In this document: one piece after another, positions 16,968 through 33,826 of the stretch | Position numbering within the stretch: the stretch's first letter is position 1 | How the letters are laid out: each line of letters opens with the position of its first letter | Source: Candidatus Woesearchaeota archaeon | Lineage (GTDB): Archaea; Nanobdellota; Nanobdellia; SCGC-AAA011-G17; JACPIM01 | NCBI GenBank assembly: GCA_964457785.1 | Contig: CAYWEX010000002.1 | Location: forward strand, 15,691-79,690 | DNA: 64,000 bases | Direction: 5' to 3' | Program-made: the position numbers and the translations under genes | Notes under the pieces: generated by a model | What the model was told of the DNA's origin: nothing | Seen by the model: the letters and a program-made list of their open reading frames with translations, nothing else | Database searches by the model: none

Positions 16968-17651
16968 CTATTTCTTTGCTCCTTTTGATTTTTTAGCTTT
17001 AGTTTCTGTTTTAGTTTTTTTAGCTTTGGGTTTTTCTATTTTAACTTTAGGCTCTTTTTTTGCCTCTTTTTTCTCAACAACTTTTTCTTCCTTTTTTATT
17101 TCTTTTTTCTCAGGAAGAACTTTCTTTTCCTTCTTCTGCTTCTCTTTTATTTCATAACCCAATACTTTTAACTCTCTTTTTATTGTTTCAGAAGCTTCAT
17201 TCTTTTTTATCTCTAATTTTTTATCTAAAGTTTTTAAATGAAGAACGTTACATTTTCTTCTTCTTACCTGGCCATCAATTAATACAAAATTATCATCTAT
17301 TTTATCAACAACAACACATACTGAACCTGCTTCTCTTCCTGCTGTTTTTATACAAATCTGGCCTAAATCTAATGGAAGCTCTTTAAGATCTTTGAATTTT
17401 TCTATTATTTTTTCTCTTGAACAGTTTGAACATAAGTTTCCACCATAAGGTCTAGCTACTGTTTTTTGGGAATAAGGCAGGTTTCTAAAATCAGAAGGCC
17501 TTTCTCGAGGAATACCAATTAATTCTTTATGGCAATTACCGCATTTTGCTATACTTGGTTTTCTTTTTTCATAATGAGTAACTAACCTATTTCCAGGAGT
17601 ACGAACTTGAATTCTTCTTAAGCTTCTTGTTGCCTGTGGTTGTATTGCCAT
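16968..17651 (-). CDS. Fusion of ribosomal proteins eL34 (N-terminal) and eL14 (C-terminal) with a Lys-rich tail
   Basis: aa 1-~88: RSLRRIQVRTPGNRLVTHYEKRKP...CGNC...GGNLCSNC (eL34 zinc ribbon). aa ~95-165: GQICIKTAGREAGSVCVVVDKIDDNFVLIDG...RRRKCNVLHL (eL14 KOW). Single uninterrupted frame. Confidence 0.8.
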   Translation of the reverse strand: MAIQPQATRSLRRIQVRTPGNRLVTHYEKRKPSIAKCGNCHKELIGIPRERPSDFRNLPYSQKTVARPYGGNLCSNCSREKIIEKFKDLKELPLDLGQICIKTAGREAGSVCVVVDKIDDNFVLIDGQVRRRKCNVLHLKTLDKKLEIKKNEASETIKRELKVLGYEIKEKQKKEKKVLPEKKEIKKEEKVVEKKEAKKEPKVKIEKPKAKKTKTETKAKKSKGAKK

Positions 17652-21859: not shown

Positions 21860-22315
21860 TTATTTTCTCTTTACAAATAAGTTATTTTCATCTAAATATA
21901 GTTTCAAGTGTCTTTTACTTCTAAACTGGTTGCCTTTTATCATTCTGTAAATTTTAGTGTAAGTTTCTCGTGCAACCAAATCTTTTAATCTTAAGCTTTT
22001 AATAAATTTTCTCTGGACTCTTACTTTTGTGATCCAAGCTCTTTTTCTTGGTGTTCTTGCTGTTTTTGTTCCTTTTCTTGAACCGGGACCTTTTCTTTTA
22101 CCTTTTCTCTTTTGAGCTCTTAATTTATTTGCCCTGAAAGATGAAATTCCATGTTTTTGTTTTGCTTTTATTGCACCATCATTTATTAACTTCCTGATAT
22201 CTGCTTTTGTGATAGCTTCTTTTATTTCATTTAATCTTGTATTGTCAAACCAAACTCTATTTTGACCTGATTTCAAGATGTCTGCGGATATTCTTTTCTG
22301 AACATTTAATTTCAT
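21860..22315 (-). CDS. rpl19e: Ribosomal protein eL19
   Basis: NVQKRISADILKSGQNRVWFD...RKGKRKGPGSRKGTKTAR. Confidence 0.9.
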   Translation of the reverse strand: MKLNVQKRISADILKSGQNRVWFDNTRLNEIKEAITKADIRKLINDGAIKAKQKHGISSFRANKLRAQKRKGKRKGPGSRKGTKTARTPRKRAWITKVRVQRKFIKSLRLKDLVARETYTKIYRMIKGNQFRSKRHLKLYLDENNLFVKRK

Positions 22316-22764
22316 TGCTTTCCTCTTAATGCTGATTCAACTTTTCTTGTTATTTGTGATAGTTCATATAATGTTAATTCTCTTTGATGATCAGCAGGAC
22401 CAAATGTTGAATCTATTTTCTTTTCTATATCATCAAATTCTACTTCTATAGCTGCTTCTAATCTTCTCTTTGGTTTTAGATTGGAAACTATTCTAATTTT
22501 TTCTACTTGTGTTTGCTTTGATCTAGTATTTTGATAATCTTCAGCAATAATTTTTGCTACATAATTAAATACTAAGTCATGAGGGAGTAATGTTCCATCT
22601 TTTTTAGAAAACATAAATGCAACTGGAAATTTTAAAGGCTTTTTTCCTTTATCTCTAAAAACGCTATAACGTATATATAGGCCTACATTGTCTGCTATTG
22701 ATCCACAAGACTCCATAGCTGAAACATCATAAGTAAATGTTTTTGTTCTTAATTTTGTTGTCAT
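22312..22764 (-). CDS. Uncharacterised 150-aa protein inserted between eL32 and eL19
   Basis: Intact ORF with ATGA stop/start overlaps on both flanks (22761-22764 and 22312-22315); no known motif. Confidence 0.6.
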   Translation of the reverse strand: MTTKLRTKTFTYDVSAMESCGSIADNVGLYIRYSVFRDKGKKPLKFPVAFMFSKKDGTLLPHDLVFNYVAKIIAEDYQNTRSKQTQVEKIRIVSNLKPKRRLEAAIEVEFDDIEKKIDSTFGPADHQRELTLYELSQITRKVESALRGKQ

Positions 22765-23333
22765 AATCCTGCCTCTAGTACTTTTCTTTTTTCTTCTTGT
22801 TCTCTTTTTTTCTTTTCTTCGTCTGTTTCTTCCTTTTCTTCCTTCTTTGATTTTTCTTCTTTTTTCTCTGGCTTCTTTTCTTTTAGTCTTATTCTTTCTT
22901 TCTTTTCCTTTACTCTTTTTTCAAATTCCTGAGTTAAAGTTTTGATTTTTTCATCAATATTTTTTATATTCTGGATTTTGAAGCTTTTTTCTTTTATTTT
23001 CTTTAATATTTCAATTCTTTTCTTGTTTCCAACTGTTCTTCCAATAATTATAATATTATTTTTAGCTACTTTTGCCAAATCATTTAAAGTATGAATTAAA
23101 ATTGGAACTAAACCTTCTCTGCTTAAACCACGAACTAATCTTGGAGATTTATATCCAACACTAGGCTGCTTTCTCTTGCCAAGCTTCTTTTTTCTCATCT
23201 TGGAATGAATTCCTTTTGGTTTTCTCCAAGTTTTCTCCAATCTTTTTCTGGCAGGATACTCTTGCCTGATAAATTCTGGCTTATTATCCTTAATTTTTTC
23301 TCTTAATTCCAATAATTGCTGAAATGTTTTCAT
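22761..23333 (-). CDS. rpl32e: Ribosomal protein eL32 with a K/E-rich C-terminal extension
   Basis: WRKPKGIHSKMRKKKLGKRKQPSVGYKSPRLVRGL core. Confidence 0.85.
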   Translation of the reverse strand: MKTFQQLLELREKIKDNKPEFIRQEYPARKRLEKTWRKPKGIHSKMRKKKLGKRKQPSVGYKSPRLVRGLSREGLVPILIHTLNDLAKVAKNNIIIIGRTVGNKKRIEILKKIKEKSFKIQNIKNIDEKIKTLTQEFEKRVKEKKERIRLKEKKPEKKEEKSKKEEKEETDEEKKKREQEEKRKVLEAGL

Positions 23334-29283: not shown

Positions 29284-29562
29284 TTAGTCCTTATTATTTT
29301 TTTTATGTCTCTTAATTTCTTCCAAAATTCTTTTTTCAACTTCCCCAATTTTTTCATCATCACCGAATAAAACTACTGTCATATAATTATCTGGATAGGA
29401 CCGAGCTTCTGTTTTTATAGCAATATCTTGAAAGAAATGAACATATGTTCCACGTGATATTTCTCTGATAATTGTCTCTGCTCCCATCATATTCATCATA
29501 CCATTAAAAACAAGAGGATTACAGAAATTTTCTTGTGGTCCGTTATAAATTTCTTTAGCCAT
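29284..29562 (-). CDS. Uncharacterised 92-aa protein inserted between uL2 and uS19
   Basis: Intact ORF; 1-nt gap after the uL2 stop and 6 nt before the uS19 ATG; no known motif. Confidence 0.55.
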   Translation of the reverse strand: MAKEIYNGPQENFCNPLVFNGMMNMMGAETIIREISRGTYVHFFQDIAIKTEARSYPDNYMTVVLFGDDEKIGEVEKRILEEIKRHKKNNKD

Positions 29563-29563
29563 T

Positions 29564-30286
29564 TTACTTTCTACCTGTTCTCCTTGCAGCGACTTTACCT
29601 ACTTTTCTTCCTGGTGGAGCATTTCTACTTACTACTTTAATCTTTGCGTGCATTCTTCCTCTACCAGAACCATAAGGATGATTCAAAGCATTCATAGCAA
29701 CTGCTGAAGTTTGAGGATATATTTTTCCTCTTGTTCTCATATAATGCCATCTTTTTCCAGCTTTTACAAACGGCTTGTCTTTTCTTCCGTGACCAGACAA
29801 AGTTCCTATTGTTGCCCTGCAATCTGGCTGGAATTTTTTTTGTTTTTTTGACGGCAACTCAATTAAAATTGAATCTTTAGTTGAGCTGATTATTTTTGCA
29901 AATGTTCCTGCAGCTCTGCAGAATTTACCGCCATCTCCTGGGGAGCTTTCTATATTATATATTAAAGTTCCCTCTGGAATTACTTTTAATGGAATTGTAT
30001 TTCCGTTGTTAATGGCTGAAGTGAAACCTGATTCTATAATATCATTGACTCTTATATTCAAAGGAGCCAGAATATATGCTTCTTCATTATTAGCGAATTT
30101 TATTTTTGCCAAAGGTGTTGTGTGGCCAGGACACTTTACTAAATCGATAACTTTGCCTGAAATTTTTGATGATTTTTCAATTTGATCATATTTTCTGTAT
30201 TTTACATCTGCCAAAAAATGACCAGAGTTAGCTCTATAAACTGGTGTTCCACGTCCACGTCTTCTGATCATTATTCTCTTTCCCAT
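29564..30286 (-). CDS. rpl2: Ribosomal protein uL2
   Basis: GTLIYNIESSPGDGGKFCRAAG...HPYGSGRGR. Confidence 0.95.
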   Translation of the reverse strand: MGKRIMIRRRGRGTPVYRANSGHFLADVKYRKYDQIEKSSKISGKVIDLVKCPGHTTPLAKIKFANNEEAYILAPLNIRVNDIIESGFTSAINNGNTIPLKVIPEGTLIYNIESSPGDGGKFCRAAGTFAKIISSTKDSILIELPSKKQKKFQPDCRATIGTLSGHGRKDKPFVKAGKRWHYMRTRGKIYPQTSAVAMNALNHPYGSGRGRMHAKIKVVSRNAPPGRKVGKVAARRTGRK

Positions 30287-30610
30287 TTATAATTGAGCTC
30301 CTACATCAGCTAATATTTTTACTAGTCTTGATCTTTCGCTTTCTGGAAATATTTGAATTCTATCTTTTGTTAAATGCATCATGCTGAATGAGGATATTGG
30401 TTTGTAAGTTACAATTCCATCTAATTCCATTATCCAATGATCTCGTGCTATGATAAATTCATTTTGTTTTCCTCTTTTTTTAAAAACGTGCTCTCTTTTT
30501 GTTTCTGATAATCCTAAATATTCAGCTTCTTCTATTTCTCCGTTTGGATATTTTTCTACACGATAAACATTTCCTTTTGTGAGTGCTGGTTTTTTAAAAT
30601 ATTCTTGCAT
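30287..30610 (-). CDS. Uncharacterised 107-aa protein inserted between uL23 and uL2
   Basis: Intact ORF abutting the uL2 ATG (0-nt gap) and 1 nt after the uL23 stop; no known motif. Confidence 0.55.
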   Translation of the reverse strand: MQEYFKKPALTKGNVYRVEKYPNGEIEEAEYLGLSETKREHVFKKRGKQNEFIIARDHWIMELDGIVTYKPISSFSMMHLTKDRIQIFPESERSRLVKILADVGAQL

Positions 30611-30611
30611 T

Positions 30612-30869
30612 TTACATTAGTCCTAGTTTTGTTGCTACATCCATGGCATTATTTTCCTTATTTAATTTGACGTATGCTTTTTTTCCTTCTACTCCTATTA
30701 GAGTATTTATTTTTTGAACTTTCACGTTGAACAGTTCTTCAACTGCTTTTTTTATATCTGGTTTTTTTGCTTTTCTGTCTACTATAAAAACAATTTTATT
30801 TTCTGTTTCCATTAACTTGAAACATTTTTCAGTTGCTACAGGATATTTTATTATTTCGTGACTTTCCAT
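30612..30869 (-). CDS. rpl23: Ribosomal protein uL23
   Basis: IIKYPVATEKCFKLMETENKIVFIVDRKAKKPDIKKAVE. Confidence 0.9.
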   Translation of the reverse strand: MESHEIIKYPVATEKCFKLMETENKIVFIVDRKAKKPDIKKAVEELFNVKVQKINTLIGVEGKKAYVKLNKENNAMDVATKLGLM

Positions 30870-33357: not shown

Positions 33358-33498
33358 ATGGCGCAAGAAACGGTTACAATAACAAAAGAAGAATACGAAT
33401 TGCTTAAAAAGCAGTCCACAATAGATTTAGCTTTACTAAAACAATTCGTAGAAAGTTTTAAAGATATTAAAGAAGGTAGAATTAGAAGAGTTAAGTAG
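33358..33498 (+). CDS. Small antitoxin-like ORF (46 aa: MAQETVTITKEEYELLKKQSTIDLALLKQFVESFKDIKEGRIRRVK)
   Basis: Manual translation; below the ORF-track cutoff. Its 3' end overlaps the RelE-like gene by 8 nt in convergent orientation. Confidence 0.35.
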   Translation: MAQETVTITKEEYELLKKQSTIDLALLKQFVESFKDIKEGRIRRVK

Positions 33499-33826
33499 GC
33501 AGTTTATCTTCACTGATTAATTTTGTTATCTCTTCCTTAAATAAATCAAATAAAAACTTTATGGTGTTAATTATTTTTTGTTGGTCATTTTTATCACTAG
33601 TAGCAACCATAAAAACAGCATTCATTTCTTCATAAATAATAAAATAGATTCTATATTTTCCATAACGTTTTTCTCTAAACCATTCATAATCTATTTTATC
33701 GCCCAAATAAGGATTTTCTACAAGCTGATCTTCTATTTTATCAACGCGATTTAGAAAGTCTTTATCAGATTTCTTTAGCTCATCATCAAATCTTTTAGAA
33801 TGATAAACTTTGAACCTCTTTTCCAT
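33491..33826 (-). CDS. RelE/ParE-superfamily toxin-like protein
   Basis: Size and pattern fit the family: ...LVENPYLGDKI...EKRYGKYRIYFIIYEEMNAVFMVATSDKNDQ. Confidence 0.6.
   Translation of the reverse strand: MEKRFKVYHSKRFDDELKKSDKDFLNRVDKIEDQLVENPYLGDKIDYEWFREKRYGKYRIYFIIYEEMNAVFMVATSDKNDQQKIINTIKFLFDLFKEEITKLISEDKLPT

Follow-up and report, generated by a model that had tools for sequence, protein, structure and literature searches.

An orphan gene at the eL32/eL19 stop/start junction of the spc operon in a Woesearchaeota-type DPANN clade, possibly a dispensable passenger

We analysed a 64,000-nucleotide stretch of DNA from a Candidatus Woesearchaeota archaeon (contig CAYWEX010000002.1, positions 15,691 to 79,690; hereafter the window), in which an additional open reading frame (ORF) of 150 codons, ORF150, lies between the ribosomal-protein genes eL32 and eL19. 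ORF150 is best explained, with what we judge to be about an even chance, as a dispensable passenger within the spc operon, confined to a single Woesearchaeota-type DPANN clade of genus rank. It is a genuine gene, being intact, syntenic and open in several species beyond chance, and it is a taxonomically restricted orphan with no detectable homologue outside a narrow clade. Its family is new, and the kind to which it belongs, the orphan family, is familiar. ORF150 evolves at an elevated rate and has been gained and lost among relatives. It is probably not a core ribosomal protein, and any function that it has would be accessory and non-essential.

The archaeal S10-spc ribosomal super-operon occupies approximately 18.1-32.7 kb of the window on the minus strand, running from L3-L4-L23 to SecY, and the genes around ORF150 follow the canonical archaeal spc order, S4e-L5-S14-S8-L6-L32e-ORF150-L19e-L18-S5-L30-L15-SecY. 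The ATG of ORF150 (22764-22762) overlaps the TGA of eL32, and its own TGA (22314-22312) overlaps the ATG of eL19, each junction reading ATGA, and both ORF150 and eL19 are preceded by a GAGG Shine-Dalgarno-like motif (Table 1). A preliminary description of this DNA had reported an intact 150-codon ORF embedded in the operon with ATGA overlaps on both sides; its coordinates and translation proved exact, and each start is in addition preceded, at 6-7 nt, by a GAGG motif. The motif before ORF150 is kept in the window, in the related loci L003 and L004, and in the insert-free locus L007. The motif before eL19 encodes a conserved Arg-Gly of the ORF150 tail and reads AGAGGA, AGAGGAG and AAGGGGA in the three orthologues. 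Most genes of the cluster are packed in the same way. With same-strand overlaps on both sides and a ribosome-binding motif, ORF150 has the architecture of a translationally coupled operon member, and coupling is predicted. An open stretch of 450 nt from junction to junction has a chance probability of approximately 4e-6, given approximately 0.08 stops per codon in sequence of 30% GC. The GC content of ORF150 is 0.29 and its codon adaptation index relative to the ribosomal-protein set is 0.78 (neighbours 0.63-0.80), in agreement with the earlier impression that its composition and codon usage resemble those of its neighbours. Its GC content at third codon positions (0.10) is the lowest among all genes tested, as would be expected if its composition were drifting toward mutational equilibrium.

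When 1.84 billion sequences representing 15 billion proteins were scanned exhaustively with HMMER, only two credible homologues of ORF150 emerged, P0002 (from L003) and P0003 (163 aa). Both are encoded at the eL32/eL19 junction, with identical ATGA overlaps, in related Woesearchaeota-type DPANN genomes, and the positionally conserved family comprises three species-level lineages, namely the window, L003 and L004. P0002 is called at 145 aa and has a real length of 143 aa. Its public call reads an in-frame TGA as Trp (...RGEQWN), and under translation table 11 the protein ends ...RGEQ-stop with an ATGA overlap with eL19 like that of its orthologues; the wrong genetic code was applied in the annotation of the L003 assembly. 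Two further proteins returned by the scan, P0004 (E 6e-6), a 2476-aa adhesin-like repeat protein, and P0005 (E 5e-5), an 800-aa TPR protein, were rejected as repeat or low-complexity artefacts matched by many short stretches. A word-indexed search with ORF150 recovered only itself; the identical protein is encoded on an NCBI contig of 90 kb and by two further assemblies. Profile searches and a profile scan of GTDB genomes added no family members, and there was no match in JGI metagenomes (two scans), IMG/VR, phages or plasmids. Searches of Pfam, NCBIfam and PDB sequences were likewise empty, bearing out the earlier remark that ORF150 has no recognisable family motif; PHROG, NCBIfam and PDB hits at E values of at least 0.1 were taken as noise. 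No credible PHROG or PADLOC match was found and none was better than E 0.009, the value of a PADLOC mad2 match (12.9 bits) that we judged to be noise. Rfam matched nothing in the whole window.

To place ORF150 among relatives, we used a comparison set of 80 DPANN loci labelled Woesearchaeota, Pacearchaeota or Nanoarchaeota, which were fetched with eL19 as probe. Within this set, only the window, L003 and L004 carry the ORF150 family at the eL32/eL19 junction. In L007 (isolate H51-bin052_1) and L008 (isolate RIFCSPHIGHO2_02_FULL_29_19), eL32 overlaps eL19 directly, and ORF150 is also absent from approximately 75 further loci. Judged by identity across 13 concatenated proteins (83-89%), L007 and L008 are no further from the carriers than one carrier is from another. 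A neighbour-joining tree of these 13 proteins has the topology ((window,L003),(L007,(L004,L008))), with bootstrap values of 1.0 for L004+L008 and for L004+L007+L008. The non-carrier L008 is thus the sister of the carrier L004, indicating that the presence of ORF150 is not monophyletic. The preliminary description had proposed a lineage-specific ribosomal protein and had named absence from close relatives with otherwise identical operons as the observation that would speak against it. The synteny comparison reveals precisely this absence in L007 and L008, whose flanks are 83-89% identical to those of the carriers, and the proposal is not upheld.

The eL32 gene beside the insert records part of this history. 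In L007 the eL32 tail is still of the carrier type, GAGGCAGGATTATGA, and runs directly into eL19: the end of its eL32 gene, ...GTACTTGAGGCAGGATTATGA (VLEAGL-stop), abuts eL19 with no insert, and the simplest reading of this scar-like junction is a precise deletion of ORF150. A different tail, VLEGK[KA]-stop, is found in L008, L009 and L010. In the eL32 gene tree, the carriers group with L007 (0.82) and L008 falls outside, whereas L004 and L008 pair in nine of ten other gene trees, including those of eL19 and L6 on either side. This discordance points to homologous recombination confined to the gene beside the insert, and its conflict with the 13-protein tree suggests that insert-bearing or insert-free alleles have been exchanged at this locus. 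Since the eL32 allele of L008 is itself discordant with the species tree, the absence of ORF150 from L008 may reflect either a second deletion or replacement by an insert-free allele. ORF150 is inherited together with the adjoining eL32 allele.

The divergence of ORF150 stands apart from that of the genes around it. When the window is compared with L003 or L004, identity is 77-96% for flanking proteins and 31-37% for ORF150, whose protein sequence changes roughly ten times as fast as those of its neighbours. Nucleotide differences at codon positions 1, 2 and 3 are 0.46-0.51, 0.43 and 0.34-0.47 for ORF150, and 0.07-0.18, 0.03-0.09 and 0.27-0.46 for ten neighbouring genes; the profile of ORF150 is flat, whereas the neighbours show the usual steep one. 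The ratio of nonsynonymous to synonymous divergence (omega, dN/dS) is 0.74-0.87 for ORF150 and 0.02-0.12 for the neighbours by the Nei-Gojobori method, and 0.24-0.30 and 0.02-0.08, respectively, by pairwise maximum likelihood (ML) under GY94-F3x4, which corrects for the extreme AT bias at third positions. Under both methods, the contrast with every neighbour is 5-20-fold. These values do not support the earlier idea that ORF150 is produced at ribosomal-protein stoichiometry out of need, as it is 5-20 times less constrained than every neighbour and its carriers are not monophyletic. While the dN of ORF150 is 0.58-0.69, its dS is 0.66-0.93 (eL32, 0.77-1.34), and its third-position and synonymous divergence equals that of the flanks, suggesting that ORF150 is as old as the lineage split and has been co-inherited with them. 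The earlier view that ORF150 is not a recent insertion is therefore sound, and the gene predates the split of at least three species-level lineages. Along the gene, omega is 0.06-0.49 in the N-terminal approximately 30 alignment columns and 0.15-0.35 in the C-terminal 23 columns; the central 113 columns give 0.32-0.53, values that for two of the three pairs are statistically indistinguishable from 1.

We simulated neutral evolution of ORF150 at 0.25-0.5 substitutions per site, with fourfold-site or ORF composition and kappa of 1-4. The frame remained open in at most 0.9% of runs per lineage, most often in under 0.1%, and the expected number of stops was 4-10. The actual frame is open in all three lineages, in which length differences are of whole codons only. 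Together, the simulation and the three open frames indicate that something selects for uninterrupted translation of ORF150.

A passenger gene held in place by its position could account for this pattern. ORF150 entered the eL32/eL19 stop/start junction before the carriers diverged, on this reading once, in the clade ancestor, and its expression signals would be those of the junction, with none of its own beyond them. Ribosomes ending eL32 would stop at the TGA that overlaps the ORF150 ATG, with GAGG 7 nt upstream, would read 150 codons, and would stop again at the TGA that overlaps the eL19 ATG, with GAGG 6 nt upstream, from where the translation relay would pass to eL19, L18, S5, L30, L15 and SecY. 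Selection would chiefly preserve this relay, that is, an open frame with in-frame indels only, both Shine-Dalgarno-like motifs and both overlaps, and nonsense and frameshift mutations would presumably be purged as breaking the hand-over of ribosomes to eL19 and the genes behind it. A weak function of the two conserved termini may also partly explain why the frame is kept. The product would be a small basic polypeptide whose weak constraint is concentrated in the N-terminal approximately 20 and C-terminal approximately 23 residues and which has otherwise been free to change at nearly every residue since entry. Loss would be tolerated only if a clean eL32/eL19 junction were restored. We infer that what keeps ORF150 in place is mostly its part in the relay and not the protein that it encodes.

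Several observations weigh against this explanation. Because eL19 has a GAGG motif of its own, it might still be translated if ORF150 acquired a premature stop, and coupling is then less convincing as the sole reason for keeping the frame; moreover, the translation of ORF150 and its coupling are themselves predictions from the architecture of the sequence. For the gene as a whole, ML omega lies significantly under 1 (p about 1e-4 to 5e-4), indicating some purifying selection at the protein level. The three orthologues share 25 invariant columns, a good number of which hold aromatic or aliphatic residues, the C-terminal motif of 13 residues is preserved via synonymous codon changes, and all three proteins are basic (net charge +7 to +13, pI 9.5-10.1). 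An AlphaFold2 (AF2) model of ORF150 reached a predicted template-modelling score of 0.59 from the three sequences alone. In addition, the omega of ORF150 is method-dependent, with synonymous sites near saturation, and the rate comparisons rest on three orthologues, too few for site-specific tests.

The predicted local distance difference test score (pLDDT) of the AF2 model was 39 from one sequence and 56 from three. The model comprises an N-terminal beta-hairpin, a helix at residues 62-81 and a C-terminal helix at residues 132-147, the latter with pLDDT of 70-76. A Foldseek comparison of an AlphaFold model, which the preliminary description had recommended, returned no ribosomal-protein fold and nothing significant from PDB or BFVD (best E 0.36 and 0.28; model pLDDT 56). 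The top of the PDB list consists mostly of RNase H-like nucleases (PIWI, NurA, EndoV, DDE transposase and RAG1), all of them non-significant on this low-confidence model (best E 0.36, probability at most 0.30, TM 0.27-0.37), and the candidate catalytic Asp of strand 1 is D, N and N across the three orthologues; an RNase H-like fold is therefore noted as no more than a lead. By hhalign, ORF150 is unrelated to eL19 or eL32 (probability 0.1% each), and no ribosomal-protein profile matches it, both of which speak against a ribosomal-protein identity.

Searches for the origin of ORF150 were equally sparing. Neither tblastx nor blastn found a donor sequence in the window or related loci, and ORF150 has no terminal inverted or direct repeats beyond chance. 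A chimera produced by tandem duplication of the eL19 head and the eL32 tail is kept only as a weak rival, given the hhalign result and the lack of a source. The ORF150 tail (RKVESALRGKQ-stop) does resemble the ancestral eL32 tail (RKVLEGKA-stop); since its Arg-Gly is the AGAGGA Shine-Dalgarno-like motif read in frame, we treat the resemblance as convergence under shared signals, and an unrelated ORF in L084 likewise ends ...GGKK-stop over GGAGG. A regulatory RNA element in the 3' end of ORF150 was rejected, as RNAalifold detected no conserved RNA structure in the 3' part and Rfam was empty for the window. A LAGLIDADG homing endonuclease was also considered. Residues 14-24 (VSAMESCGSIA) are what we took to be a LAGLIDADG-like motif, and the single-sequence AF2 topology looked alpha-beta-beta-alpha-beta-beta-alpha. 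This candidate was rejected because the motif is not conserved in the orthologues, there is no Pfam match even at E 10, and no LAGLIDADG structure appears among the Foldseek hits. ORF150 has no recognisable nuclease, transposase or integrase domain in Pfam, PHROGs or PADLOC, and no copies at other window loci, at related loci, or in viruses or plasmids. No homology to mobile-element genes was found in Pfam, PHROGs, PADLOC, IMG/VR, phages or plasmids. Precise empty sites and patchy presence are found here, as in mobile elements, yet they are expected of any dispensable insert.

Other junctions between ribosomal-protein genes of this clade are also occupied by orphans (Table 1). X107 lies between L23 and L2 with spacers of 0-1 nt. 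Its homologues, of 105 and 119 aa, are found at the same junction in L087 and L090 and are 32-48% identical while the flanks are 81-94% identical. X92, tightly packed between L2 and S19, was seen in the window genome only. The codons with which it opens, ATGGCTAAAGAAAT (MAKEIYNG), are a duplicate of the start of S19, the next gene downstream (MAKEPTYKG in the window, MAKEILYKG in L091), and comparison of its opening, ATGGCTAAAGAA..., with the S19 consensus MAKE[IP][LT]YKG suggests that the insert may have borrowed a copy of the S19 translation start. L087 has the X107 homologue and no X92, and it carries an L2 protein cluster that includes the 143,890-bp contig of L007. In L090, a close relative which comes from the same sample as L003, the X107 homologue is accompanied by a pentapeptide-repeat gene, recognisable as cargo inside the S10 operon. 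The L23-L2-S19 stretch of L091 has no X107, X92 or pentapeptide-repeat insert. A further orphan family, of 193 and 180 aa (X193), occupies the L6/eL32 junction in L004 and in L009, a more distant relative, and is absent from the window, L003, L007 and L008. ML fits for all X107 and X193 pairs, and for two of three L23 pairs, went to infinite branch length owing to saturation, leaving no usable ML omega for X107 and X193. Outside the clade, the eL32/eL19 junction of L084, a distant Woesearchaeote, holds a tightly packed 75-aa ORF that is unrelated to ORF150 and has a TAATG overlap with eL19. In total, there are at least five junction occupants, four in the five-genome clade (one of them shared with L009) and one, unrelated, in a distant lineage. 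An automated survey of unassigned ORFs across the 80 DPANN loci was too noisy, as tblastn misses divergent ribosomal proteins, and only the hand-checked case of L084 is used.

Table 1. Coordinates of ORF150 and of other features in the window and in related loci
Feature	Location	Strand	Description
ORF150	window 22312-22764	minus	intact, 150 aa, ATG start; orphan; basic protein, pI 9.5, net charge +7
eL32 gene	window 22761-23333	minus	190 aa; long K/E-rich C-terminal extension; Pfam Ribosomal_L32e PF01655, E 1e-27
eL19 gene	window 21860-22315	minus	151 aa; Pfam Ribosomal_L19e N and C domains
GAGG Shine-Dalgarno-like motif for ORF150	window 22772-22775	minus	7 nt upstream of ORF150 ATG, inside eL32 tail codons (VLEAGL-stop)
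GAGG Shine-Dalgarno-like motif for eL19	window 22322-22325	minus	within AGAGGA; 6 nt upstream of eL19 ATG
Conserved N-terminal segment of ORF150	window 22705-22764	minus	M-T-[TR]-K ... R-x-[KQ]-x-[FG]-x-Y-[DN]-V (alignment)
Most conserved block of ORF150	window 22345-22383	minus	residues 128-140, R-x-L-T-x-[YF]-E-L-S-x-I-[ST]-R; predicted within C-terminal helix
X107	window 30287-30610	minus	107 aa; no Pfam match
L23 gene	window 30612-30869		flanks X107
L2 gene	window 29564-30286		flanks X107
X92	window 29284-29562	minus	92 aa; no Pfam match
Pentapeptide-repeat gene	L090 1686-2279		197 aa; PF00805, E 7e-21; between X107 homologue and L2
193/180-aa orphan	L004 4853-5434; L009 3884-4426		L6/eL32 junction; no Pfam match; 28% identity, E 1e-15
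75-aa ORF	L084 829-1056		eL32/eL19 junction; no Pfam match
Public call of P0002	L003 2235-2672		in-frame TGA read as Trp
ParE-like toxin ORF	window 33491-33826	minus	PF05016, E 2e-4, just below Pfam cut-off; just upstream of ribosomal cluster
46-aa ORF	window 33358-33498	plus	adjoins ParE-like toxin ORF; could be its partner
eL32 C-terminal extension	window 22761-22950	minus	K/E-rich, approximately 60-70 aa
Ribosomal_L34e/KOW product	window 16968-17651	minus	227 aa; Ribosomal_L34e (residues 7-86) and KOW motif (residues 97-126)

Other explanations account for parts of these data. ORF150 could be a lineage-specific ribosomal protein or a ribosome-associated factor, that is, a small basic protein that binds the ribosome, for example at a lineage-specific rRNA feature, and evolves fast because of a surface position. 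Its place in the operon and predicted coupling, the pI of 9.5-10.1 in all orthologues, the ML omega below 1 with conserved terminal motifs, and a codon usage like that of highly expressed neighbours would all fit. We nevertheless consider this explanation unlikely, given that L007 and L008 lack ORF150 in operons that are otherwise the same (one of them being the sister of a carrier), that its omega is 5-20 times above that of every ribosomal-protein gene tested (0.24-0.87 versus 0.02-0.12), and that its net charge of +7 is far below that of eL19 (+37) or eL32 (+31); in addition, it matches no ribosomal-protein family or fold (Pfam, NCBIfam, PDB sequences, Foldseek), and its family is limited to three genomes among 15 billion proteins. 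Similarly improbable in our view is a conflict-driven accessory protein with an anti-viral, anti-toxin or host-interaction role, placed in the operon for strong constitutive expression, in which the high replacement rate would reflect diversifying selection mixed with purifying selection and the patchiness a changing selective value. The very high dN (0.58-0.69) in a frame that is kept, the patchy presence and the recombination at the locus are compatible with it, as are a ParE-like toxin nearby and the pentapeptide-repeat gene at another junction in L090, the pentapeptide-repeat family being one that includes DNA-mimic proteins. Yet omega exceeds 1 nowhere in ORF150, no PADLOC or PHROG match is better than E 0.009, and neither a partner gene nor virus or plasmid homologues were found; three sequences are also too few to reveal positively selected sites.

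We regard as slightly less likely still that ORF150 arose de novo in situ, when DNA was duplicated or inserted at the junction together with a copy of the downstream translation start, after which non-genic DNA became translated as a young, drifting gene. The X92 start that duplicates the S19 start offers a parallel, the ORF150 head (ATGA..AAATTAA; MTTKL or MTRKL) resembles the eL19 head (ATGAAATTAA; MKLN), the tail is like the ancestral eL32 tail, there is no homologue elsewhere, and the middle region is near-neutral. However, the body of ORF150 is unlike eL19 and eL32 by hhalign, tblastx and blastn found no source, the Shine-Dalgarno motif and the constraint from the overlap account for the likeness of the tail, as in the L084 ORF, and the match of the heads extends over 7 AT-rich nucleotides only. 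A de novo origin would in any case be compatible with a passenger gene as its origin story. The explanation that we find least probable, and very doubtful, is the decayed remnant of a selfish or mobile gene, for instance one for a free-standing nuclease of homing type or for a nuclease of the RNase H-like kind that had been inactivated; such a gene would have targeted the conserved junction and then degenerated. A patchy distribution in closely related genomes, in which the empty sites are precise, the exchange of alleles of the neighbouring eL32, the repeated occupation of ribosomal-gene junctions in the clade and the mostly RNase H-like top Foldseek hits could be cited for it, but those hits are all non-significant (E 0.36, probability at most 0.30, TM at most 0.37) on a model of pLDDT 56, no nuclease profile matches in Pfam, and the first-strand Asp is not conserved. 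Furthermore, terminal inverted or direct repeats are not found beyond chance, no second copy turned up in the window, at related loci or in any of the collections, and the dS of ORF150 equals that of its flanks, which fits vertical co-inheritance and not recent spread. Finally, there is a slim possibility that ORF150, X107, X92 and the 193/180-aa family form a strain-variable outer layer of the DPANN ribosome, composed of fast-evolving accessory proteins that are gained and lost and are made at ribosomal-protein stoichiometry. Their role might be to bind rRNA features specific to the lineage, or to shield the ribosome in conflicts between host and symbiont or with viruses.

As a putative dispensable passenger gene, ORF150 can be set beside several known systems. 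Operon-riding orphan genes (ORFans) and phage 'morons' are similar in having no homologues outside a narrow clade, in being inserted between conserved genes without disturbing them while borrowing expression from the host unit, and in their elevated omega and presence/absence polymorphism among close relatives. ORF150 differs from them in lying within the archaeal S10-spc super-operon with 4-nt ATGA overlaps on both sides and no promoter or terminator of its own, and in that several unrelated orphans occupy different junctions in one genus. The small basic lineage-specific archaeal ribosomal proteins aL45-aL47 were identified by physical means as components of ribosomes and are retained throughout their lineages; ORF150 is likewise small, basic and restricted to part of Archaea but, unlike them, is missing from sister species and has an omega of 0.24-0.87. 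Translationally coupled genes with ATGA stop/start overlaps occur in ribosomal-protein and other operons, and ORF150 shares with them the overlaps and the Shine-Dalgarno-like motif 6-7 nt upstream, with the difference that here the middle gene is seemingly kept mainly to link the relay and not for what it encodes. In ORF150, the predicted succession of strands and helices is roughly compatible with RNase H-like nucleases (PIWI, NurA, EndoV, DDE transposases); unlike them, it has no conserved strand-1 Asp, no sequence-profile support and no significant hit. Additions to the S10-spc cluster have a precedent in the Hsp20 gene of the Asgard groups Thorarchaeota and Odinarchaeota (PMC10833476), which, like ORF150, is a non-ribosomal gene inside an otherwise conserved cluster. 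Hsp20 is, however, a known conserved family, whereas ORF150 is familyless, far less constrained and patchier. The DPANN genome GW2011_AR10 has the canonical L6-L32e-L19e-L18 order with no insert (PMC10833476).

Two features of the ribosomal proteins themselves were observed along the way (Table 1). The K/E-rich extension of eL32 is present in the clade and in nearer relatives, giving total lengths of 186-206 aa; in Pacearchaeota-type loci, eL32 is 110-130 aa long. The 227-aa Ribosomal_L34e/KOW product may be an L34e-L14e fusion; in another DPANN genome, L34e and L14e are encoded by two genes lying side by side (PMC10833476).

The S10-spc cluster is commonly regarded as frozen, and in this one DPANN genus unrelated orphan ORFs have repeatedly been gained, lost and exchanged between alleles exactly at ribosomal-gene stop/start junctions. 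Synteny alone is therefore insufficient for calling operon-embedded ORFs new ribosomal proteins, and such inserts should not be taken for assembly errors in marker-gene work based on metagenome-assembled genomes. Were the inserts instead an outer layer of the ribosome, ribosome composition would differ between sister species. If ORF150 is kept as a relay link, it would provide a natural system for studying how new genes gain expression in streamlined, promoter-poor genomes, and how translational coupling may lock in an ORF whose product is barely constrained.

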